Positions 3,377 to 62,731 are shown, counted from the stretch's first letter. The stretch: DNA of 64,000 nt from Candidatus Terraquivivens yellowstonensis (GCA_023539445.1 JAKCEW010000003.1:2250-66249), one strand, 5' to 3'. Made by a program: numbers and translations. The notes: a model not told the origin generated them from the letters alone.

Positions 3377-3453
3377 TGGTGGACCGGCGGGGATTTGAAC
3401 CCCGGACCTCTCGGGTGCAAACCGAGTGCTCTTCCAGACTGAGCTACCGGCCC
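3377..3453 (-). tRNA. tRNA-Ala (anticodon TGC) with encoded CCA
   Basis: The reverse complement folds as acceptor GGGCCGG/CCGGTCC with a G3:U70 pair (the alanine identity element). D arm GCTC/GAGC, anticodon stem CTCGG/CCGAG with loop TTTGCAC, T arm CGGGG-TTCAAAT-CCCCG, discriminator A plus CCA. Total 77 nt. Confidence 0.85.
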
Positions 3454-30990: not shown

Positions 30991-31065
30991 GCTCCGGTAG
31001 TATAGTCCGGTCAAGTATACGGGCCTCTCGAGCCCGGGACCCGGGTTCAAATCCCGGCCGGAGCA
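30991..31065 (+). tRNA. tRNA-Glu (anticodon CTC), no encoded CCA
   Basis: Acceptor GCTCCGG/CCGGAGC, anticodon stem CGGGC/GCCCG with loop CTCTCGA, T arm CCGGG-TTCAAAT-CCCGG, discriminator A. Total 75 nt. Confidence 0.8.
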
Positions 31066-31259
31066 CTATGCAACATGATTTTGCCAAAGCATACTCTCAC
31101 TTGAGATTATAAAATTTTTGGAAAACGGTAAGAGAATTTGTTGAGGTCCATTTCTTCACATTAAGATAAATTCGCATGGAACGCTCGTATTTTTATTTAG
31201 ACATCTCATTGAAGTAAAATAGCAGCAACTGGGATGCAAATACAGGGAGCTGACGTCCT

Positions 31260-52033: not shown

Positions 52034-52393
52034 TTGTCAAAAGAGATACCGCCAAGTGTTCAGCAGCAATTGCTTAGGTTGCAGCAGCTTCAGCAGACGC
52101 TGAGCGCCTTATTGGCAGAAAAGCAGAGGCTCGAGGCCGAGCTGGCTGAAATAAACAACGCACTAGAGGAGCTTGAGAAGGTCGATGAGAATGCTGTCAT
52201 ATACAAGGCCGTAGGTCCTATACTCGTCAGGGTGAACAAAGATAGGCTCACGGTTGAACTGAAGGACAAAAAGGAACTGACGGAGACGAGGCTTAAAGTT
52301 TTAGAGAAGCAGGACGCTAAGATGAGAACGCAGATAGAGTCCGTCCAGAAAGATATACAGAGAATAATGTCCGGCCAACAGACTTCGTCATGA
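52034..52393 (+). CDS. pfdB: Prefoldin beta subunit
   Basis: 119 aa, coiled coil - beta hairpin - coiled coil (QQLQQ...ELEKVDENAVIYKAVGPILVRV...). Confidence 0.8.
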   Translation: MSKEIPPSVQQQLLRLQQLQQTLSALLAEKQRLEAELAEINNALEELEKVDENAVIYKAVGPILVRVNKDRLTVELKDKKELTETRLKVLEKQDAKMRTQIESVQKDIQRIMSGQQTSS

Positions 52394-53403
52394 AGGATGA
52401 AAAACTCGCCGAGGAGGTTGCTAACCTCCTTAAATCTATGAGTGGCAAGACAGTAGCCATAGTAACGCATGTTGGTGGAGACGCTGATGCAGTCGGTGCC
52501 GCCTACGTTCTTAAGAGAGTCCTCGAGGAGAATTTAGGCTGCACCACGGCGCATGTACACATACCGGATGAAATGTCAGCGCAAGTAAGAGCCATGGTAA
52601 ATTATCTCAAGCTCGAAGTTAAGAGCGGGGCCATAGGCGATGTTGATGCCGTTATATTAGTAGACATTGGTTCGCTCGAGCAGGTTGCTGAGCACCTTGA
52701 AGACGTTATGAAGATGCAAGGCAAGGTATACATCATAGACCACCACGCACCTCCTCATGGCGGGTATCCACAAGGTTTTTTTGTATTCTTTTCTGAAAGT
52801 TATCGCGCACTCTGCGAGCTCGTTATGGATGTTGTAAAACTTATGGGCATAAAGCTGGATACATTGGAGGCGGAGGCCCTATTTCTCGGGATATATTACG
52901 ATACCGCAAGATTGTCGCTCGCTGATTCGGAGACCATGGCTAACATTTGTGAGCTCGTAAAGCTAGGTATCAACCCTTCAAAGAGCATACAATCGGTAGA
53001 GGTTCCAATCGACATTTCGGAAAGGATAGCGCGTTTGAAGGGAGCCATGAGAATGAACCTATACAGGGCTGGCGAGTGGCTGATCGCAACATCCCAGGTA
53101 AGCTCCTTCCAGACGTCCGTCGCTAGGGCTATCTTATCGCTCGGTTGTCATGTATCAATAGTAGCTGGCGAGTATAAGAATGGTGTTGCTGTATCGATGA
53201 GGTCGCAACAAGATTTTTTTGCTAAAACCAACATAAACCTAGGAAAGGATGTTGCGCAGACCGTTGGTGCAAGGCTGGGAGGTTATGGTGGAGGGCATGC
53301 CACGGCGGCGAGGGCATATTGCAACTCAACGCCGGATGAAGTTATCAAGTTGTGCTTGAACTTATTAGAAGGCTTACTCGGTGAGAGATTGAACCGAGTG
53401 TAA
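52390..53403 (+). CDS. DHH/DHHA1 family phosphoesterase (NrnA/RecJ-like nanoRNase)
   Basis: Motifs HVGGDADAVGAA and DHHAPPHG with a DHHA1-like C-terminal region. Confidence 0.7.
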   Translation: MKDEKLAEEVANLLKSMSGKTVAIVTHVGGDADAVGAAYVLKRVLEENLGCTTAHVHIPDEMSAQVRAMVNYLKLEVKSGAIGDVDAVILVDIGSLEQVAEHLEDVMKMQGKVYIIDHHAPPHGGYPQGFFVFFSESYRALCELVMDVVKLMGIKLDTLEAEALFLGIYYDTARLSLADSETMANICELVKLGINPSKSIQSVEVPIDISERIARLKGAMRMNLYRAGEWLIATSQVSSFQTSVARAILSLGCHVSIVAGEYKNGVAVSMRSQQDFFAKTNINLGKDVAQTVGARLGGYGGGHATAARAYCNSTPDEVIKLCLNLLEGLLGERLNRV

Positions 53404-53409
53404 CCGAAG

Positions 53410-54264
53410 ATGGAAATAGTAAGGGTCGAGGGGCTGACATTTACCTACAGTGGCTTTGATACGCCTGCTATCAGTGACATAAATCTCAGTATCGAAGAAG
53501 GGGAATTTGTCCTTCTCCTTGGACCCAGCGGTTGCGGGAAGTCAACACTCTGCAGATGTCTGAATGGTCTCATACCGCACTTCTATGCTGGCAAGATGGA
53601 GGGGAGGGTATTGGTTGCTGGCATGGATGTTTCCAAAACGCCAACCTACGTACTCTCCCAATACGTGGGCATGGTATTCCAGAATCCAGAGAATCAGCTA
53701 TTCTCGTTGACCGTTGAGAACGACGTCGCCTTCGCGCTCGAGAATTTGGGCATGCCAAGGGATGAAATCAGACGTAGGGTGGATTTTGCTCTCAAAGCGG
53801 TCGGTATAGAGGATTTGAGAAAGAGGTCGCCTTTTGAACTGTCAGGGGGCCAGCAACAGAAGGTTGCTATAGCATCGATTCTCGCGTTGATGCCTAAAAT
53901 CATGGTATTCGATGAGCCGACATCCTCCCTAGATCCGGTATCCGCAAAGTCGATAATTGAGACGATATTTAAGGTAAAGAAGGAGCTCGGAACGAGTGTC
54001 GTGGTGGCTGAGCACAGGGTCGAGTTGCTGGCCGATAAGGTGGACAGAGTGATCGTGATGCAAAAGGGAAGGATCGTGAAAGATGGAAGGCCAAGGGAAG
54101 TTTTCGTCTCAGAGGAAATGATACCTTACGGTGTGCCCGTTCCTAAAGTTGTCAGCATGGCTAAGGGTGTGAACAGGCACTTTAAAGTGTTTAATGAAAT
54201 ACCACTAAGTTCTGAAGAATTCGAGCAAGGCATAAGGAGGTTCATCCATGATAAAGTTCGATAA
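53410..54264 (+). CDS. ecfA1: ECF transporter ATPase component A1
   Basis: Walker A GPSGCGKST, signature LSGGQQQ, Walker B VFDEPTSSLD. Confidence 0.75.
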   Translation: MEIVRVEGLTFTYSGFDTPAISDINLSIEEGEFVLLLGPSGCGKSTLCRCLNGLIPHFYAGKMEGRVLVAGMDVSKTPTYVLSQYVGMVFQNPENQLFSLTVENDVAFALENLGMPRDEIRRRVDFALKAVGIEDLRKRSPFELSGGQQQKVAIASILALMPKIMVFDEPTSSLDPVSAKSIIETIFKVKKELGTSVVVAEHRVELLADKVDRVIVMQKGRIVKDGRPREVFVSEEMIPYGVPVPKVVSMAKGVNRHFKVFNEIPLSSEEFEQGIRRFIHDKVR

Positions 54265-55084
54265 CGTAACTTATGTTTATCCGACGGGTGTGAAGGCGTT
54301 AAACAGTGTCAGCGTTGAGATCGGAAGGGGCGAGCTAGTGGCACTGATGGGTGAGAATGGTGCAGGAAAGACCACTTTCATAAAGCACCTGAACGGTCTT
54401 CTAAAACCCACGAGCGGAAACGTCTATGTGGACGGAAAGGATACCAAGACGCTCAGCGTGGCACAGCTGTCTAGGATTGTTGGGGTAGTGTTTCAAAATG
54501 CTGACGATATGTTTTTTCTCCCGACAGTTGAAGAGGAAGTTGCTTTCTCCTTAAGGAACTTGGGCTTCAGTGAGGATGTTGTGCAGAGAAGGGTAGATTG
54601 GTCCCTTAAATTTATGGAGCTTGAGGAATACAGGAATAGGTCTCCTTTTCTGCTGAGCGGTGGTGAAAAGAAGAGGCTTGCCCTTGCGATAATCCTAGCT
54701 TGGAACCCCCAAGTCATAGCGATGGACGAGCCTACAGTCGGCCAAGATAGTATGCAGAAGGAGAAACTAAAGGAAATGATAAAGCAGCTGAACTTACAGG
54801 GAAGGACTGTCATAATTTCGACGCACGATGTCGAATTCGTCGCGGAACTTAAGCCGAGAGTTATTTTGATGTCAAAGGGAAGAATAATCGCTGACGGCAA
54901 GGCTGAGTTTATCCTGACGGATGGCGAGTTACTAAGTAGCTGCTCGATACTCATGCCGCAGGTGGCCGCAACGATGTCTAGATTAGCAGACTTAGGCTTT
55001 AATGCCAAAGTTATCTCAGTCGAAGAGGCTGTAAGGAATATAGTGGAGGGGCTGAGAGGGCTTGAGCATACTAGAAGGGCTTAA
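54248..55084 (+). CDS. ecfA2: ECF transporter ATPase component A2
   Basis: Walker A GENGAGKTT, signature LSGGEKKR, Walker B AMDEPTVGQD. Confidence 0.75.
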   Translation: MIKFDNVTYVYPTGVKALNSVSVEIGRGELVALMGENGAGKTTFIKHLNGLLKPTSGNVYVDGKDTKTLSVAQLSRIVGVVFQNADDMFFLPTVEEEVAFSLRNLGFSEDVVQRRVDWSLKFMELEEYRNRSPFLLSGGEKKRLALAIILAWNPQVIAMDEPTVGQDSMQKEKLKEMIKQLNLQGRTVIISTHDVEFVAELKPRVILMSKGRIIADGKAEFILTDGELLSSCSILMPQVAATMSRLADLGFNAKVISVEEAVRNIVEGLRGLEHTRRA

Positions 55085-55820
55085 GTTCTATGCTGGCGAT
55101 ACGGCAATACACAAGCTTGACCCAAGGGTGAAATTTCTCGTTTCCATGCTAATGCTCATCATAGTTGTGATGTATGCAGAGGTATGGATGCTGACGATTC
55201 TCATAGCGGTGCAGGCTGCGATTGTTTATGTCGCCAAAGTCATGCGGCGCTGGCTCAAGACGATAAAGGGTTCGATGCCCCTAGCCGCCCTTGTCTTCGG
55301 CCTTAATGCTATATTCTTCATCTCAACTGGCACCTATACGACTTTGCAAGAGGTGTTTTACCACTCACTCGCGCTGGCGTACAGACTCGTGCTATTCCTT
55401 TCGTCGTTCTCCATATTCTTCTTGACAACGACGCCGGAGGAGATAGGGCTGACACTCACGAGCTGGCACGTTCCATACCAATACACGTTCGCCTTCATAT
55501 CAGCGATAAGGTTCACGCCAATAATAGCCCAAGAACTTAGGGACATCATGGATGCGCAAAGAGCGCGCGGTGTCGAGCTGGATAGGGGTGGACCCTTGCA
55601 GAGAGCTAGGAAATTCATACCGATACTTGTACCGCTCCTCGCGAACGCTCTCAAGAGGGCATACGAGTTGGCAGAGGCTATGGAGGTGAAATGTTTCGGT
55701 GCCGCAAAAAAGAGGACATCATTGATGGAGCTCAAAGCTAGACCTAAGGATTATGCAGTTTTGTTGACAGCGCTAGTCTTTTTTGGTCTGGCCGTGTACT
55801 ACAGGCTCTTCCCGTTCTGA
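55062..55820 (+). CDS. ecfT: ECF transporter transmembrane component T (CbiQ family)
   Basis: 252 aa with 5-6 TM helices and the conserved arginine-containing coupling helices AQRARGVEL. Confidence 0.7.
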   Translation: MSILEGLKFYAGDTAIHKLDPRVKFLVSMLMLIIVVMYAEVWMLTILIAVQAAIVYVAKVMRRWLKTIKGSMPLAALVFGLNAIFFISTGTYTTLQEVFYHSLALAYRLVLFLSSFSIFFLTTTPEEIGLTLTSWHVPYQYTFAFISAIRFTPIIAQELRDIMDAQRARGVELDRGGPLQRARKFIPILVPLLANALKRAYELAEAMEVKCFGAAKKRTSLMELKARPKDYAVLLTALVFFGLAVYYRLFPF

Positions 55821-55828
55821 GCCCACGA

Positions 55829-56818
55829 CTATATTTGGGCTAGCTTCCTGATTATCTCGCCCACCTTCTCTATCGGATGGTTCCTTATCTCCTCCATCTT
55901 CTTTTCGAGTATTAGCCTACTCCTCGGGTCCTCGCTCCAGAGCCTTGCGAAGGAGCCGTCTTGAATCCTCCTGAGGGCCTCCCTCATGTTCTCCTTCACG
56001 TGCTCGTCAACTATCTGCGGACCTACAAGCAGACCGCCGAACTTCGCGGTATCGGATACAGCATTCAGCATGCCAACCAAGCCACCCCTATATATCAGGT
56101 CGACTATCAGCTTCATCTCGTTGCATGCCTCGAAATAGGCGAGCTCCGGCTGATATCCTGCCTCGACTAGCACCTCATACCCTTTCTTTATGAGCTCCAT
56201 GACACCACCGACTAGGACCGCCTGCTCTCCCAACAGGTCGGTCTCCGTCTCCTCCTTGAATGTCGTTTCGAGGACGCCAGCCCTAGCACAACCCAATGCC
56301 TTGGCCATAGCTAGGGCGATAGCCCTCGCATTCCCAGAGTAGTCCTGCCCTACAGCGAAGAGTGCAGGGACGCCTTTTCCTTCAAGGTAGAGCTCGCGCA
56401 TCCTCGGACCCGGCGCCTTAGGTGCGACGAGTATGACATCCACATAGCTAGGTGGCACTATCTGCCTGAAGTGTATGTTATACCCGTGAGAGAATCCCAA
56501 GACCTTTCCTGGCTTCATATTAGGCTCTATGAGCTTTTTGTAAACCTCAGGTTGCACCACGTCCGGTATTAGCATGTGGATTATGTCACCTTCCTTCGCG
56601 GCCTCTTCTATAGGAAGAGGCTCTAGGCCGTCTTCTTTTACCATTCTCCAAGATTTTCCTCCTTCCCTAACGCCAACGACGACGTCTACGCCGGAGTCCT
56701 TCATGTTGAGCGCTTGGGCCCTTCCTTGACTCCCATAACCTATTACGGCTACCTTCTTGCTGAGCAAGGGCTCGAGGCTTATATCACTATCGTAGTATAT
56801 TTTTGCCATACATCCCAC
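55829..56818 (-). CDS. ilvC: Ketol-acid reductoisomerase (class I)
   Basis: NADPH-binding [12 protein letters not shown] and Mg-binding residues in the C-terminal knotted domain. 329 aa. Confidence 0.9.
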
Positions 56819-56821
56819 CTC

Positions 56822-57100
56822 CTACACATTTGAAACTTTATTCAGACCCGCACCCAATGTTGTACAATCTACCTCCAGCACCACGGGCAAGCTAAATAGC
56901 TTTCTCTTTAGCCACTCGGCCTTTTCAGGTTTTAACGATACGGACATCGTAAGGAGCTTAACGTTATCCATTCCTGATTCGCATACCTCGGCGCTTATTA
57001 GCTTTGCCTGAGCTTGCCTCGTGGTCAGAAGCACCTTGATGACGGCTTCCAGAGAGTCCTCAACCAGTACGCTAAACACGTATGCGCGCATGTACATCAA
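56822..57100 (-). CDS. ilvN: Acetolactate synthase small (regulatory, ACT-domain) subunit, copy 1
   Basis: ACT-domain start YVFSVLVEDSLEAVIKV. It is downstream of and overlapping ilvB. Its last ~23 codons lie outside the duplicated segment. Confidence 0.75.
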   Translation of the reverse strand: MMYMRAYVFSVLVEDSLEAVIKVLLTTRQAQAKLISAEVCESGMDNVKLLTMSVSLKPEKAEWLKRKLFSLPVVLEVDCTTLGAGLNKVSNV

Positions 57101-58844
57101 ACCCCGTAGGCGTCATCATTTGGTTAAACCACTTGCCAGGAGGTACCATAGGCAATACCCTTTCCTCCTTGTCTATCGGCAGATCTATGACGAATGCTTG
57201 TCCCGACCTAACTGCCCTCCTCACAAGCATCCTTAGATCGTCCAAAGATTCTGCCACTGCGCCCTCAACGCCCATGGATTCTGCGAGCTTCACGTAGTCA
57301 ACGCTTCCCTTAACGTACCTTTTCAGGTATATCTCGAGACATTCGTCTTTGTACCTCTTTTGGTAGAAGAGGTCCTGCCACTGTCTTATCATGCCGAGGA
57401 CCCTGTTATCGAAGATTATGCATATGACAGGGATGTCATACTGGGCCATCGGTATTAGGCTTTGGCACGTCATCGTGAAGCTACCATCACCGTCGATGCA
57501 TGCCACAGTCCTGTCGGGCGCAGCAATCTTCGCACCGACTGCAGCAGGAAGCCCGAAGCCCATCGTACCAAGACCGCAACTTGTTATCAATGTTCTTGGT
57601 TCGAAGATCTTGAAGCAAAGTTGTACCCACATCTGGTGCTGCCCGACACCAGTAGTAACTATTGCATTCCTCGGCAATTCCTCCCTTATCACCTTCAAAG
57701 CACGCCAAGAGGTCATCCTATTGGGTTCACCGTAGTTGTTCATAAACTCCTCGAACCTTTCGCCTATTGCTTTAAGCCTCTGGACGAATGGTCTTGCTTC
57801 CTTTCTCGCGGTTCTAGATATGATGCAGGCGTAAAGCTCCGACAGCACCTTCTTTGCGTCACCAGCTATGCTTACTGTCGGTGTAACGTTCTTGCCGAGT
57901 TCGCTCGCATCTATGTCTACGTGAATCACCTTCCTGCCTTTCTGAAATTCATCGAATCTTCCGACAGATCTATCGGCGAATCTCATACCGACTGCAAGTA
58001 TTGTGTCCGACTCCATCACGGCAAGATTAGCCTCAATTCTACCATGCATTCCGATAACACCCAGCATGAGCGGATGGTCGGAAGGCATTGAGCCCAGACC
58101 CGGGGTCGTGACTACGACAGGGGCCATGAGGTACTCCGCTAACTTGACCAGCTCTTCCGTTGCATTGCTTAATATTACACCTCCACCAGCTATTATTACC
58201 GGCTTATCGGCATTCATCAAAATGTCGGCCGCTCTGGATATGAGTTCTGGGTCCGGCTCCTGAGTCTGCTTCATGACAAGGCCCGATGCGTACTTTATCA
58301 GACTTGGTTCATCCTTCCAGTAAGGCTCTACGTCCGCTTGGAACACGTCCCTAGGAACATCAATAAGAACGGGACCTGGCCTACCAGCGGTCGCGATATG
58401 GTATGCGTCCACGAAGGTCTGGGCTAGTTTTGATGGTTCTTTAACGATTACGGCATACTTTGTGACTGGTAGGAGTATGCCGGTTATGTCCGTTTCTTGG
58501 AAGGCATCAGTTCCGAGAACCTCCCGCGGTACTTGACCGGTTATCGCAACGACCGGCTGGCTGTCCATCATGGCATTAACTATGCCTGTCACTAGGTTCG
58601 TCGCACCGGGACCTGAGGTCGCTACGGCCACTCCAGGCCTACCCCTAACCCTTGCATAACCCTCTGCGGCGTGCGCTGCCTGCTGTTCATGTCTCATCAG
58701 TATGGTCCTTATGTTGCTGTCGTAAAGCGCATCGTAGAACGGCAAGATAGAACCGCCGGGTATGCCAAAGATGACGTCCACACCCTTGGATTCCATAGCC
58801 TTGACTAAAGCATCAGCTGCCCTTACCATATGACTTCACCACTC
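56893..58844. repeat. Tandem direct repeat unit 1 (~1.95 kb: 3' part of ilvN, all of ilvB, and 15 nt upstream of the ilvB start codon)
   Basis: Nucleotide identity with 59081-61029 is essentially 100%, except a patch at 57296-57526. Read directly from the sequence. Confidence 0.9.
57072..58829 (-). CDS. ilvB: Acetolactate synthase large subunit (TPP-dependent), copy 1
   Basis: 585 aa with the three TPP-enzyme domains and Mg/TPP motif GDGSF...N. Confidence 0.9.
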   Translation of the reverse strand: MVRAADALVKAMESKGVDVIFGIPGGSILPFYDALYDSNIRTILMRHEQQAAHAAEGYARVRGRPGVAVATSGPGATNLVTGIVNAMMDSQPVVAITGQVPREVLGTDAFQETDITGILLPVTKYAVIVKEPSKLAQTFVDAYHIATAGRPGPVLIDVPRDVFQADVEPYWKDEPSLIKYASGLVMKQTQEPDPELISRAADILMNADKPVIIAGGGVILSNATEELVKLAEYLMAPVVVTTPGLGSMPSDHPLMLGVIGMHGRIEANLAVMESDTILAVGMRFADRSVGRFDEFQKGRKVIHVDIDASELGKNVTPTVSIAGDAKKVLSELYACIISRTARKEARPFVQRLKAIGERFEEFMNNYGEPNRMTSWRALKVIREELPRNAIVTTGVGQHQMWVQLCFKIFEPRTLITSCGLGTMGFGLPAAVGAKIAAPDRTVACIDGDGSFTMTCQSLIPMAQYDIPVICIIFDNRVLGMIRQWQDLFYQKRYKDECLEIYLKRYVKGSVDYVKLAESMGVEGAVAESLDDLRMLVRRAVRSGQAFVIDLPIDKEERVLPMVPPGKWFNQMMTPTGFDVHARIRV

Positions 58845-58950
58845 TAAAGAGGTTTTCAGAGAAGGGGGAACAACGCGGTACTAGAGAGTATATACTAGGC
58901 GAGGGGTTACCCGCCATTTCTAGAGAATTTGGCGCACCATTTCGCCCTCA

Positions 58951-58996
58951 CACTTCGAGGTGGATAATTGTATAGCAATATTATAAAAAGGTTTCG
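58951..58996 (-). promoter_or_regulatory. ilvB copy-1 promoter: BRE/TATA (rc TTTTTATAAT) plus a 12-bp wobble palindrome CACTTCGAGGTG ~29 bp downstream, overlapping the predicted start site
   Basis: An AT-rich TATA-like box is preceded by a purine-rich BRE on the coding strand. The palindrome is conserved in position with the copy-2 promoter. Confidence 0.5.
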
Positions 58997-59018
58997 TAAA
59001 CGCGCCACGAATGCGTGT

Positions 59019-59288
59019 TCAGGTTTCCTTTAAAACGGCATTCAATCCTACGTAATTTGCTTCAAGCACCGTCGGCAAGTTGGATAGCTTTCTCTTTAGC
59101 CACTCGGCCTTTTCAGGTTTTAACGATACGGACATCGTAAGGAGCTTAACGTTATCCATTCCTGATTCGCATACCTCGGCGCTTATTAGCTTTGCCTGAG
59201 CTTGCCTCGTGGTCAGAAGCACCTTGATGACGGCTTCCAGAGAGTCCTCAACCAGTACGCTAAACACGTATGCGCGCATGTACATCAA
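59019..59288 (-). CDS. ilvN: Acetolactate synthase small subunit, copy 2 (divergent C-terminal tail)
   Basis: Identical to copy 1 over the first ~68 residues. Then a homologous but diverged tail SNLPTVLEANYVGLNAVLKET. Confidence 0.75.
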   Translation of the reverse strand: MMYMRAYVFSVLVEDSLEAVIKVLLTTRQAQAKLISAEVCESGMDNVKLLTMSVSLKPEKAEWLKRKLSNLPTVLEANYVGLNAVLKET

Positions 59289-61029
59289 ACCCCGTAGGCG
59301 TCATCATTTGGTTAAACCACTTGCCAGGAGGTACCATAGGCAATACCCTTTCCTCCTTGTCTATCGGCAGATCTATGACGAATGCTTGTCCCGACCTAAC
59401 TGCCCTCCTCACAAGCATCCTTAGATCGTCCAAAGATTCTGCCACTGCGCCCTCAACGCCCATGGATTCTGCGAGCTTCACGTAATCGATGCCCTTCTCA
59501 ACGTGCTTCACTGACAGACCGAGGTGCTCGTCTTTGTACCTCTTTTGGTAGAAGAAGTCCTGTAACTGTCTTATCATGCCGAGGGATCTATTGTCAAATA
59601 TTATGCATATGACGGGAATGTCGTACTGGACTATCGGCACCAAGCTTTGACAAGTCATTAAGAAGCTACCATCACCGTCGATGCATGCCACAGTCCTATC
59701 TGGAGCCGCCGCCTTCGCACCGACTGCAGCAGGAAGCCCGAAGCCCATCGTACCAAGACCGCAACTTGTTATCAATGTTCTTGGTTCGAAGATCTTGAAG
59801 CAAAGTTGTACCCACATCTGGTGCTGCCCGACACCAGTAGTAACTATTGCATTCCTCGGCAATTCCTCCCTTATCACCTTCAAAGCACGCCAAGAGGTCA
59901 TCCTATTGGGTTCACCGTAGTTGTTCATAAACTCCTCGAACCTTTCGCCTATTGCTTTAAGCCTCTGGACGAATGGTCTTGCTTCCTTTCTCGCGGTTCT
60001 AGATATGATGCAGGCGTAAAGCTCCGACAGCACCTTCTTTGCGTCACCAGCTATGCTTACTGTCGGTGTAACGTTCTTGCCGAGTTCGCTCGCATCTATG
60101 TCTACGTGAATCACCTTCCTGCCTTTCTGAAATTCATCGAATCTTCCGACAGATCTATCGGCGAATCTCATACCGACTGCAAGTATTGTGTCCGACTCCA
60201 TCACGGCAAGATTAGCCTCAATTCTACCATGCATTCCGATAACACCCAGCATGAGCGGATGGTCGGAAGGCATTGAGCCCAGACCCGGGGTCGTGACTAC
60301 GACAGGGGCCATGAGGTACTCCGCTAACTTGACCAGCTCTTCCGTTGCATTGCTTAATATTACACCTCCACCAGCTATTATTACCGGCTTATCGGCATTC
60401 ATCAAAATGTCGGCCGCTCTGGATATGAGTTCTGGGTCCGGCTCCTGAGTCTGCTTCATGACAAGGCCCGATGCGTACTTTATCAGACTTGGTTCATCCT
60501 TCCAGTAAGGCTCTACGTCCGCTTGGAACACGTCCCTAGGAACATCAATAAGAACGGGACCTGGCCTACCAGCGGTCGCGATATGGTATGCGTCCACGAA
60601 GGTCTGGGCTAGTTTTGATGGTTCTTTAACGATTACGGCATACTTTGTGACTGGTAGGAGTATGCCGGTTATGTCCGTTTCTTGGAAGGCATCAGTTCCG
60701 AGAACCTCCCGCGGTACTTGACCGGTTATCGCAACGACCGGCTGGCTGTCCATCATGGCATTAACTATGCCTGTCACTAGGTTCGTCGCACCGGGACCTG
60801 AGGTCGCTACGGCCACTCCAGGCCTACCCCTAACCCTTGCATAACCCTCTGCGGCGTGCGCTGCCTGCTGTTCATGTCTCATCAGTATGGTCCTTATGTT
60901 GCTGTCGTAAAGCGCATCGTAGAACGGCAAGATAGAACCGCCGGGTATGCCAAAGATGACGTCCACACCCTTGGATTCCATAGCCTTGACTAAAGCATCA
61001 GCTGCCCTTACCATATGACTTCACCATAC
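59081..61029. repeat. Tandem direct repeat unit 2
   Basis: Same as above. The units are separated by a 236-bp non-identical spacer carrying a promoter. Confidence 0.9.
59260..61014 (-). CDS. ilvB: Acetolactate synthase large subunit, copy 2
   Basis: 584 aa, identical to copy 1 except for a ~230-nt patch in the C-terminal TPP domain. Confidence 0.9.
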   Translation of the reverse strand: MVRAADALVKAMESKGVDVIFGIPGGSILPFYDALYDSNIRTILMRHEQQAAHAAEGYARVRGRPGVAVATSGPGATNLVTGIVNAMMDSQPVVAITGQVPREVLGTDAFQETDITGILLPVTKYAVIVKEPSKLAQTFVDAYHIATAGRPGPVLIDVPRDVFQADVEPYWKDEPSLIKYASGLVMKQTQEPDPELISRAADILMNADKPVIIAGGGVILSNATEELVKLAEYLMAPVVVTTPGLGSMPSDHPLMLGVIGMHGRIEANLAVMESDTILAVGMRFADRSVGRFDEFQKGRKVIHVDIDASELGKNVTPTVSIAGDAKKVLSELYACIISRTARKEARPFVQRLKAIGERFEEFMNNYGEPNRMTSWRALKVIREELPRNAIVTTGVGQHQMWVQLCFKIFEPRTLITSCGLGTMGFGLPAAVGAKAAAPDRTVACIDGDGSFLMTCQSLVPIVQYDIPVICIIFDNRSLGMIRQLQDFFYQKRYKDEHLGLSVKHVEKGIDYVKLAESMGVEGAVAESLDDLRMLVRRAVRSGQAFVIDLPIDKEERVLPMVPPGKWFNQMMTPTGFDVHARIRV

Positions 61030-61137
61030 CATGGAGAATCTAGGAATTGGGGGGAAGTACTGGTACCGCAGATTACATACTGGACGGGGGCGTGTCCGCC
61101 TTTGCTTAGAGGACTTGGCGCCTCATTATCACCCTCA

Positions 61138-61180
61138 CGCCTCGAGGCGGAAAAATATGCAACTATGTTATAAAAACGTT
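61138..61180 (-). promoter_or_regulatory. ilvB copy-2 promoter: TATA (GTTATAAAAACG) plus perfect palindrome CGCCTCGAGGCG at the same spacing
   Basis: Same architecture as copy 1. It lies in the 178-bp gap between the leuA stop and the ilvB-2 start. Confidence 0.5.
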
Positions 61181-61192
61181 TCGTGAGAGTTT

Positions 61193-62731
61193 TCATACCA
61201 TCCCCTCCCCAGCCGCGTGTAGCATGGCCTTTTCGATTCCCGATATTATGGCGTTCACTACAACAAAAGCAGGATCATGCCCAACTGCCTCGCCAACCAA
61301 CTCTTGCGAGTCGTTGACCGTTAGCACAACCTCTGCCTCACACGTCAAATCAGGTGAGTAAGATGTTGCATCAATTTTAAAGTCGATTAACTTGACGTTC
61401 ATCTTGCTGGATAAGGCATTCAGAAGGGCTGAAAGGGAAGCAGCGACCGGACTTTTGTCGAAAGACTCAGCCATGACGATGTCATCACCTATCTTCAGGG
61501 ATATGCGTGCCATCGCACCATTCATATTGGACGTGATGTCGAGTCCCTTCAGGGATATTAGCCGATCATCCCTCGGCTTCCCTGCAATTTCTTCAGCTAT
61601 AGCCTTGAGTTTGGTGTCTGAAACCCTCATGCCCATATCGCCAAGAGTTTTGACCCTTTCCAGAACTTCCTTAGCCTTCGCCCTGTCCATATCAAGACCG
61701 TACTCTTTCAGCATGAAGTCTATACCATGTATGCCCGAGTGCTTCCCAGCCACTATCTTCCTTTTCCTTCCGACCGTTTCTGGCATTATTGGTTCGTATG
61801 TTTCAGGAGAACCGAGTACACCATGTACGTGTATGCCACTCTCATGCGCAAATGCATTCTCGCCGACGATTGCTTTGTTCTTAGGAATCCAGACTCCAGT
61901 AAGCTTTGCGACAAGTTTTGATGTCTTGTATATCTCTTGAAGGTTTATGTTGGTCTTCACACCGTAGAGCGTATGCAACGCCACGACTATCTCCTCTAGG
62001 CTTGCGTTACCGGCCCTCTCACCTATACCGTTAACCGTTGCATGTATTATCTCTGCGCCCGCCTCAACGGCTGAGAGCGAGTTTGCTACTGCAAGTCCCA
62101 TATCATCATGACAATGGACTGCTATCGGCTTGCCCGTGACGGCCTTTGCGGACGACACAATCTTGCGGATCACCATGGGTATCGCAAAACCAACAGTGTC
62201 GGGTATGTCTATGCTATCAGCTCCAGCATCGGCTGCCACCTTCAACGCTTTCATTAAGAAGTCGTGCTCCGTCCTTGTCGCATCTTCGGCTGAATAGTGA
62301 ACTACTACCCCTCTCGACTTAGCGTACTCCACGGCTTCGGCTATCTTCGTTAGAGCCTGCTCCCTTGTCATCCTAAGCTTATACTTCAAGTGTATGTCGG
62401 AGGTCGCTAAGAATACGTGAACCCAGTCAACGCCAGTATCGACCGCGACGTCTATGTCGTTCTTCTCGCATCTCGCAAGCGCGCATATCTTTGCCGAAAG
62501 GCCGAGCTTGCATATATCCGATACAGCTTTCTGTTCACCCTTCGATGTTATCGGGAAGCCTGCTTCTATGATGTCAACACCAAGCTTGTCGAGCTGTATA
62601 GCTATCTCGACTTTTTCTTCTGGTGTCAGAGCGACGCCGGGTGTCTGCTCGCCATCCCTCAACGTTGTGTCGAATATGCTGACCCTTTCGGGAAGATTAT
62701 ATTCTCCTGAGAGGAGGTTCCTCCAAGCCAT
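61193..62731 (-). CDS. leuA: 2-isopropylmalate synthase / citramalate synthase family (LeuA/CimA)
   Basis: TIM-barrel motifs DTTLRDGEQ and HCHDDMGLAVANSL with a C-terminal regulatory domain. 512 aa. Confidence 0.85.
   Translation of the reverse strand: MAWRNLLSGEYNLPERVSIFDTTLRDGEQTPGVALTPEEKVEIAIQLDKLGVDIIEAGFPITSKGEQKAVSDICKLGLSAKICALARCEKNDIDVAVDTGVDWVHVFLATSDIHLKYKLRMTREQALTKIAEAVEYAKSRGVVVHYSAEDATRTEHDFLMKALKVAADAGADSIDIPDTVGFAIPMVIRKIVSSAKAVTGKPIAVHCHDDMGLAVANSLSAVEAGAEIIHATVNGIGERAGNASLEEIVVALHTLYGVKTNINLQEIYKTSKLVAKLTGVWIPKNKAIVGENAFAHESGIHVHGVLGSPETYEPIMPETVGRKRKIVAGKHSGIHGIDFMLKEYGLDMDRAKAKEVLERVKTLGDMGMRVSDTKLKAIAEEIAGKPRDDRLISLKGLDITSNMNGAMARISLKIGDDIVMAESFDKSPVAASLSALLNALSSKMNVKLIDFKIDATSYSPDLTCEAEVVLTVNDSQELVGEAVGHDPAFVVVNAIISGIEKAMLHAAGEGMV

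Follow-up and report, generated by a model that had tools for sequence, protein, structure and literature searches.

A stretch of 64,000 nucleotides (hereafter the window) in a metagenome-assembled genome (MAG) from Candidatus Terraquivivens yellowstonensis (Caldarchaeales; GCA_023539445.1, JAKCEW010000003.1:2250-66249) carries, between leuA and ilvC, two tandem copies of a unit that comprises a promoter, a leader, the gene for an acetohydroxyacid synthase (AHAS) catalytic subunit and a small open reading frame (ORF). The leuA-proximal copy represents the upstream or up (U) type and the ilvC-proximal copy the downstream or down (D) type. Comparison of the locus with its relatives strongly supports an old duplication, the copies of which appear to have undergone recurrent gene conversion around a conversion-free functional island, and the conclusion is robust. 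As a whole, the locus is probably best explained as an ancient tandem duplication under recurrent gene conversion, with protected segments and two AHAS isozymes. All positions are given in window numbering; L-numbers denote relative loci and P-numbers related proteins or clusters.

Concerted evolution of the duplicated unit

The tandem pair is also present in at least four other Ca. Terraquivivens lineages. Comparison of orthologous loci for copy number, which had been proposed in an earlier note on the window, recovered both units on a single contig in the first five entries below and one unit in the last two, and the gene order and the position of each copy type are constant across the two-unit genomes.

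L002, T. ruidianensis: tandem pair, single contig
L009, 558-kb contig, conspecific with the window: tandem pair, single contig
L010, 295-kb contig: tandem pair, single contig
L011, metagenome contig: tandem pair, single contig
L016-L019, independent NCBI MAGs (16 contigs): tandem pair, single contig
L003, T. tikiterensis: one unit only
L004, uncultured archaeon MAG: one unit only

Identity and synonymous divergence (dS) were compared in four genomes of different species (L009, L010, L002 and L011 or L016), with the window excluded. The values for the successive segments of the unit are given below.

Two core segments, identity: within-genome paralogs 85-93%, between-species orthologs 81-83%, cross-paralog 79-80%
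Patch, identity: paralogs 74-75% (all four genomes), orthologs 81-83%, cross-paralog 74%
Leader, identity: paralogs 61-76%, orthologs 71-73%, cross-paralog about 62%
Small-ORF tail, identity: paralogs 50-55%, orthologs 69-80%, cross-paralog about 50%
Core5 dS: paralogs 0.32-0.59, orthologs 0.71-1.64
Core3 dS: paralogs 0.16-0.39, orthologs 0.82-2.35
Patch dS: paralogs 1.3-1.6 or saturated, orthologs not lower than paralogs

The dS between core paralogs is 2-8 times below that between orthologs. Phylogenetic signal is discordant along the gene, as found when the phylogeny of the diverged flanks was set against that of the core, a comparison also suggested in the earlier note. In neighbour-joining (NJ) trees the core segments cluster by genome with 85-100% bootstrap, whereas paralog-wise clades (96-100%) are obtained for the patch, tail and leader. 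The five upstream copies of the patch form a clade (96% bootstrap) without any downstream or single copy, the upstream small-ORF tails form a clade (100%) with the downstream and single copies outside it, and the up-type leaders of the window, L009 and L010 are likewise united with 100% bootstrap. A sliding scan, again excluding the window, identified smaller paralog-specific islands kept across species at approximately residues 51-70 and 261-300 of the large subunit, and further ones at the junction between the large-subunit C-terminus and the small-ORF N-terminus and in the small-ORF tail.

This discordance between paralog-wise and genome-wise clustering of the segments shows the duplication to be older than speciation. 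The conclusion is robust to doubts about assembly, since an assembler cannot create intermediate identities or lowered dS. The shared pair, the tree discordance and the lowered core dS thus bear out what the earlier note had claimed from the window, namely an old duplication kept alike by gene conversion rather than one recent event.

In the scenario proposed here, one transcription unit consisting of a promoter, a leader, an AHAS catalytic subunit and a partner ORF of ~90 aa would have been anciently duplicated in tandem between leuA and ilvC, and recurrent intrachromosomal gene conversion would cause most of the coding sequence to evolve in concert within each genome. Conversion would not have been fixed in the promoter and leader, in a patch of ~230 bp and in the C-terminal ~22 codons of the small ORF, nor, elsewhere, in three smaller islands. 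Two AHAS isozymes would be maintained, differing mainly in the acceptor-binding loop, the partner-ORF tail and the promoters. Selection for the difference between the isozymes, together with high local divergence that blocks heteroduplex formation, would keep the patch from being overwritten.

Repeat structure and gene content of the window

Local alignment of the window with itself gives a tandem direct repeat of ~2.1 kb (56866-58989 versus 59054-61176) with 94.7% identity, and no second large repeat is found within the 64 kb. Two blocks of the repeat are perfectly identical.

57528-58841 = 59713-61026: identical block of 1314 bp, codons 1-434 of the catalytic subunit gene (B) and 12 nt of leader
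56896-57296 = 59084-59484: identical block of 401 bp, C-terminus of B and first ~68 codons of the small ORF

The patch between them (57297-57527 versus 59485-59712) contains 57 differences in 231 columns, a 3-nt indel included, and all the differences are concentrated in it (Fisher exact test, p = 2e-56). Both copies of the 401-bp block encode up-type ends, HARIRV for the large subunit (C-terminus) and MYMRAYVF for the small ORF (N-terminus). The regions upstream of the two units are homologous and diverged, at 59-74% identity per 75 bp. The earlier note had located the outer edges of the repeat units correctly to within 3 nt, had quoted the small-ORF C-terminal tails exactly as translated and had recognised the homologous yet diverged promoter/leader regions, for which it estimated roughly 75% identity; its description of the units as identical over almost their full length is wrong, since it overlooked the internal patch and perfect identity is confined to the two blocks.

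The gene order on the minus strand is leuA, B2, small ORF 2, B1, small ORF 1 and ilvC, with the following features.

61193-62731, minus: leuA-like 2-isopropylmalate synthase, 512 aa (NCBIfam NF002085, 584 bits, cut-off 517; Pfam HMGL-like, HCS_D2, LeuA_dimer)
61015-61192, minus: unit 2 promoter and ~150-nt leader, up-type; B recognition element (BRE) and TATA box ACGAAACGTTTTTATAA; TATA box at 61168-61176; GGTGAA before ATG
59260-61014, minus: B2, AHAS catalytic subunit, leuA-proximal, 584 aa, Leu-type (TIGR00118, 661.3 bits, cut-off 538.35)
59485-59712, minus: B2 conversion-free patch, residues 435-508; Leu484 encoded by TTA at 59563-59565
59019-59288, minus: small ORF 2, 87-89 aa, overlapping the end of B2; orphan family; up-type tail SNLPTVLEANYVGLNAVLKET
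58830-59018, minus: unit 1 promoter and leader, down-type; BRE/TATA ACGAAACCTTTTTATAA; TATA box at 58981-58989, 152 nt before ATG
57072-58829, minus: B1, AHAS catalytic subunit, ilvC-proximal, 585 aa, Trp-type (TIGR00118, 668.9 bits, cut-off 538.35)
57297-57527, minus: B1 conversion-free patch, residues 435-509; Trp484 encoded by TGG at 57378-57380
56822-57100, minus: small ORF 1, 90-92 aa, overlapping the end of B1; down-type tail FSLPVVLEVDCTTLGAGLNKVSNV
55829-56818, minus: ilvC ketol-acid reductoisomerase, 329 aa (NF004017, 481 bits, cut-off 336; KARI_N, KARI_C)

The exact proteins for B1 and B2 are MCL7387588.1 and MCL7387590.1, respectively, from a JGI-assembled contig of 135,947 bp. Both match TIGR00118, the equivalog model for biosynthetic AHAS, over the full length and above its curated cut-off, and both carry the three domains of thiamine diphosphate (ThDP) enzymes, PF02776, PF00205 and PF02775 (TPP_enzyme_N, _M and _C), and the ThDP/Mg motif GDGSF...FDN. 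The Trp type of B1 appears to be ancestral, because every single-copy relative is Trp-type.

Synteny around the duplicated unit is fully conserved between the window and L016 and L020. Beyond ilvC, plus-strand ORFs of 119, 337, 284, 278 and 252 aa (52034-55820) correspond in length and arrangement to the genes annotated in these two loci for prefoldin, DHH phosphoesterase, two ABC ATPases and a CbiQ-type transporter. The window also contains genes for tRNA-Ala(TGC) (3377-3453, minus) and tRNA-Glu(CTC) (30991-31066, plus), which bear no relation to the duplication.

Acceptor-specificity residue, putative partner ORF and leaders

All differences between the B1 and B2 proteins fall within residues 435-509, where 19 substitutions and a single-residue indel make up 20 differing positions; residues 1-434 and everything from residue 510 onward are identical. 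The patch begins shortly ahead of the GDGSF ThDP motif and reaches the loop beyond the motif RQWQDLFYQKRY. The conserved acceptor-specificity Trp is present in B1 (W484) and replaced by Leu in B2, RQWQ (TGG) versus RQLQ (TTA) being a two-nucleotide change. Of the differences between the copies, this one tells the most about function. On alignment to solved AHAS structures, Trp484 corresponds to position 529 of chain 1jsc_A (630 residues), which is yeast W586 in GMVTQWQSLFYEHRY, because a chain of 630 residues fits yeast AHAS residues 58-687. This yeast site is equivalent to plant W574 and E. coli AHAS II W464.

All six upstream copies in the genomes examined read RQLQDFF, and all downstream and single copies RQWQD. 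The leuA-proximal copies of every two-unit genome share RQLQDFF...EHLGLS and a C-terminus ending in HARIRV, while the ilvC-proximal and all the single copies have RQWQD...ECLEIYLKR and a shorter C-terminus. The single unit of T. tikiterensis (L003, 8001-9996) joins a Trp-type, down-like patch to an up-like tail of the small ORF (SNLPTVLEANY...), which could mean that the down-type tail is derived or that the single copy arose by recombination.

Among the 120 clusters closest to the C-terminal domain of B2, the specificity position is occupied by Trp in 93, Gln in 16, Val in three and Leu in one, with no recognisable motif in the remaining seven. The sole Leu cluster is the Terraquivivens upstream copy itself, and the nearest C-terminal domain outside Terraquivivens is only 61% identical to that of B2. 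The Gln type reads RQQQELF, and Val occurs as LGLVRQVQ(E/D)LF in P0054, P0056 and P0061, which are from Sulfolobales and other archaeal fragments. Replacement of the Trp is thus recurrent in the family. Nonsynonymous divergence (dN) of the patch between orthologs is 0.03-0.10 for both types, compared with 0.17-0.19 between paralogs, and the ortholog dN/dS is ~0.06 for both, which shows purifying selection on each type across species. Against the single-copy genes, dN is higher for the up-lineage patch (0.18 versus 0.10).

The Trp is the key site for 2-ketobutyrate in AHAS; AHAS II and III, which carry it, prefer this acceptor, AHAS I has Gln and no acceptor preference, and the Trp-to-Leu mutant of AHAS II loses the preference for 2-ketobutyrate (PMC5727371). 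The plant W574L enzyme retains catalytic efficiency, with a kcat ~2.5-fold higher and a pyruvate Km ~4-fold higher, and inhibitor binding is lost (PMC9188596). From AHAS I (Gln) and the AHAS II mutant we infer a division of labour between the Terraquivivens isozymes, in which the Trp enzyme would prefer 2-ketobutyrate (isoleucine branch) and the Leu enzyme would lose that preference and favour acetolactate (valine and leucine).

The start of the small ORF, which encodes 87-92 aa, overlaps the stop of the large subunit in both units and at all loci. In size and position it fits the gene for an AHAS small subunit (IlvM and IlvN, ~87-96 aa), and it is homogenised jointly with the large subunit. 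The family consists of 20 clusters at 90% identity, all annotated as hypothetical, and an exhaustive HMMER search with its profile found only two representatives in 1.84 billion proteins. The small ORFs have no Pfam or NCBIfam match even at E<=10, and their family profile has no match among PDB sequences at the same threshold. Comparison by hhalign with E. coli IlvH, IlvN and IlvM gave probabilities of <=1.7%, although the alignment to the ACT domain of IlvH was colinear with 25% identity. An AlphaFold2 model is all-helical (mean pLDDT 56.7) and unusable, the underlying alignment being shallow (14 sequences). The sole external hint of an ACT domain is a UniRef name beginning 'ACT domai' for P0018, and L006, which was checked for a genuine bacterial small subunit, has none downstream of its ilvB. 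The small ORF belongs to a clade-restricted orphan family, and on positional grounds it is a putative partner or regulatory subunit. No sequence method supports the label ilvN, given to these ORFs in the earlier note as what amounts to a positional guess. With that label set aside, the note's two acetolactate synthase operons in series stand, in so far as both units lie between leuA and ilvC and each is preceded by its own BRE/TATA element.

Both units, like the single-copy genes, carry an invariant BRE and TATA element, ACGAAAC.TTTTTATAA, which in the two units lies ~150 nt upstream of the ATG. It is followed by a conserved leader block, GTGAGGGTGATAATG.GCGCCAA, and by a Shine-Dalgarno-like GGTGAA just before the ATG; the BRE/TATA element and the leader block are kept in 14 of 14 aligned upstream regions, and the leaders are paralog-specific in the trees. 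The two units therefore appear to have separate promoters and long leaders, and no RNA structure is claimed for the latter. For an archaeon the conserved 5' leader is unusually long (58830-58997 and 61015-61184, minus). A structured-RNA leader was considered and rejected, there being no Rfam match and, by RNAalifold, compensatory change in only two of 17 pairs with a covariation term of -0.58 kcal/mol. Weak matches to the fluoride-riboswitch model at the large-subunit/small-ORF junctions (57100-57156 and 59288-59344, minus; 17.2 bits versus a gathering score of 34, E=0.28) lie inside coding sequence, are sub-threshold and most likely arose by chance. An ORF of 62 aa (61008-61196, minus) spans the entire leader between leuA and B2 and is called as a gene (54-62 aa) in L016-L018 and L020; it is probably not a conserved coding sequence, because the intergenic indels between species are not multiples of three.

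Assembly reliability, alternative explanations and significance

The window and L009 belong to the same species, and the DNA flanking the locus is about 99.5% identical between them. The L009 paralogs differ at 326 sites, including 269 in the core. At these variant sites the window core is up-type in both copies, except for three shared down-type tracts, while the patch and edges of the window keep strict up/down orthology to L009 with 98-100% identity (B1 patch, 99-100%). The homogenisation in the window genome (1314 and 401 identical bp) is the most extensive observed and, if real, would represent a large, mostly up-to-down conversion after the split of the two strains. Conspecific assemblies disagree on the state of the locus.

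P0034/P0044, and L009: fully diverged pair
P0042/P0045: homogenised core with distinct patches and a different U/D mosaic
P0036/P0038 and P0043: both copies Trp-type
L020, 3266-5270 (Ga0080004_1121054): single chimeric unit, up-type in its 5' end and Leu patch, down-type in its C-terminus and small ORF

P0043 comprises two accessions that lie two genes apart in one MAG and encode identical proteins of 581 aa (MCL7385197.1 and MCL7385199.1). The MAGs with two Trp-type copies reflect either loss of the Leu-type patch in some strains or a collapsed assembly; similarly, the single unit of L020 is either a real deletion by unequal crossover, giving a Leu-only strain, or the product of an assembler that skipped the repeat loop. 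Many contigs of 1-3 kb and many contig ends fall within the ilvB locus. In L018, on a contig of 1.23 Mb, a scaffold gap of 100 N (~2552-2651) lies inside the upstream ilvB and splits the gene call into 524 aa and 59 aa, which rules out long-read assembly for the ~1-Mb contigs L016-L019; these are short-read scaffolds. A 17-bp block with six differences in L016-L019 (alignment columns 1934-1950, approximately residues 544-557) shows a conversion state that is polymorphic among conspecific MAGs, the paralogs differing in L016 and being both up-type in L017 and L019 and both down-type in L018. It carries the same ambiguity between real and artefactual as the identity in the window. The ilvB locus is thus assembled inconsistently in metagenomes, and copy number and allele content of ilvB taken from these MAGs cannot be trusted without the reads.

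A de Bruijn bubble test was performed on L009 to exclude an assembly artefact, and such an artefact remains compatible with its outcome: the paralogs differ in short dense blocks (10-170 bp) with identical stretches of >=55 bp between them. Look-ups of the exact proteins B2 and P0001 returned no independent DNA assembly of the window strain. A real and an artefactual origin of the 100% identity in the window stand about level. The perfectly identical core, which the earlier note had offered as its evidence, is therefore consistent with concerted evolution but insecure, coming from a short-read MAG contig that conspecific assemblies contradict.

Several points weigh against the explanation preferred here, that of an ancient duplication under recurrent conversion which maintains two isozymes. 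The perfect identity rests on a contig assembled from a short-read metagenome, and conspecific assemblies contradict one another at the ilvB locus. The patch is the longest L009 bubble (266/269 bp versus <=170 bp elsewhere at k=55), so that a length-limited collapse could mimic an identical core with a preserved patch. In the window, both copies carry the up type at three islands whose paralog-specific state is kept in four other species; this erasure is either a very recent event or an artefact. The partner ORF has no demonstrable homology to AHAS regulatory subunits, and the proposed substrate preferences are drawn from analogies with bacterial and plant mutants and isozymes.

For the 100% identity of the window, and for that claim only, an assembly artefact has a probability somewhat short of even. 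The short bubbles of an L009-like genome would have been collapsed and the resulting nodes traversed twice, with the patch and edges left distinct. The origin of the window as a JGI-assembled MAG contig, the bubble lengths, the conspecific disagreement (the P0042/P0045 mosaic, the double Trp copies of P0036/P0038 and P0043, the chimeric L020), the short contigs and contig ends at the locus and the gap in L018 all favour it, as does the finding that only such MAGs have lost the islands which four species retain. However, no exact match of >=127 bp exists between the L009 paralogs, so that an assembly at k=127 would keep such a genome uncollapsed, and the allele switches fall inside dense blocks of 40-51 bp without a shared k-mer. 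Collapse as well as double traversal would be needed, whereas a truly identical repeat needs traversal alone, and the 85-93% paralog identities, the lowered dS and the discordant trees of the other species would be left unexplained.

The remaining alternatives address the locus in all the genomes. Had the unit been duplicated separately and recently in each species, or duplicated anew over an older pair, the core would also cluster by genome, but the patch, the small-ORF tail and the leader group by paralog across species (96-100% bootstrap), Leu484 and the EHLGLS loop are common to all upstream copies, gene order and type positions are the same in all genomes, and copying of whole units would not be expected to give a mosaic of 72-100% identity within one gene; such a history is very unlikely. 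Still less credit is given to strong purifying selection on the protein as the source of the core similarity, with the patch as a less constrained loop. AHAS is indeed highly conserved, and the loop after the Trp varies in length (a 9-aa gap versus the fungal enzymes); yet selection on the protein cannot lower core paralog dS 2-8 times below ortholog dS, perfect nucleotide runs of >=55 bp separate the diverged blocks, and the patch is itself constrained, as the ortholog dN/dS of both types indicates. It is also unlikely, if slightly less so than the two foregoing possibilities, that the Leu-type copy is decaying or non-functional or that its patch was imported horizontally from a foreign AHAS. 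The disrupted upstream copy of L018, the conspecific MAGs without a Leu-type patch and the higher up-lineage patch dN against single-copy genes point in this direction. The L018 disruption, however, coincides with the scaffold gap, the up-type patch is conserved across five genomes (dN 0.03-0.10, with high dS) and B2 matches TIGR00118 over its full length. No donor is visible either, the nearest outside domain being 61% identical and Leu occurring in none of the 119 other clusters.

The ancient duplication under recurrent conversion can also be put in a more specific form, which is advanced here as a tentative possibility: the island of ~230 bp would be held by selection and be older than the species radiation, the two isozymes would differ essentially only in the loop, the partner tail and the leaders, and the partner would be a previously unrecognised subunit in which ACT is not detectable.

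The enterobacterial AHAS isozymes (ilvBN, AHAS I; ilvGM, AHAS II; ilvIH, AHAS III) offer the closest parallel among isozymes, with several per genome, each catalytic subunit gene followed by that of a small partner, and differences at the acceptor-specificity site (Trp in AHAS II and III and Gln in AHAS I, against Trp and Leu here; PMC5727371). They are, however, dispersed, diverged over their full length and not known to evolve in concert, whereas the Terraquivivens pair is tandem and 75-100% identical outside the patch; the Terraquivivens replacement is Leu, unique among the 120 clusters, and the partner ORF is not a recognisable ACT subunit. Archaea are said to have a single AHAS gene pair (PMC5727371), while Terraquivivens carries two. 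The Leu copy shows the same residue change at the aligned position as plant AHAS W574L and E. coli AHAS II W464L. Those are single substitutions selected in the laboratory or the field, in contrast to the Terraquivivens Leu, which appears natural and anciently fixed alongside a Trp copy and is accompanied by a remodelled loop of 13 residues (EHLGLS-K.H.EKG versus ECLEIYLKR....).

Recurrent and long-lasting concerted evolution is rare in prokaryotes, being listed for 26 genes, of which seven are archaeal, all from methanogens, and AHAS is not among them (PMC6053082). As in tufA/tufB and the methanogen mtrA, mtmBC and mtbBC, the paralogs of a genome resemble each other more than orthologs of different species do, in several species, and as in those cases the partner genes of one complex would be converted together, here the large subunit and the small ORF (PMC6053082). 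The tuf case has been read as selection for uniformity; in the Terraquivivens AHAS an internal island with a known functional residue would resist conversion, giving two distinct isozymes. The one indexed paper on Terraquivivens genomes makes no mention of acetolactate synthase. The locus adds a case to phenomena already known and is no new kind of system; its protected island is unusually easy to interpret.

If true, the explanation would make the locus a clean natural case of gene-conversion homogenisation opposed by selection for functional divergence in thermophilic Nitrososphaeria, a group without any listed case of the kind. The protected island falls on the AHAS residue best characterised for specificity and inhibitor binding, and the pair would constitute a natural 'domain-swap experiment' on the AHAS flux split between isoleucine and valine/leucine. 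The orphan ORF of ~90 aa, currently annotated as hypothetical, would represent a new class of AHAS regulatory subunit, and a testable division of labour between two archaeal isozymes would be predicted.

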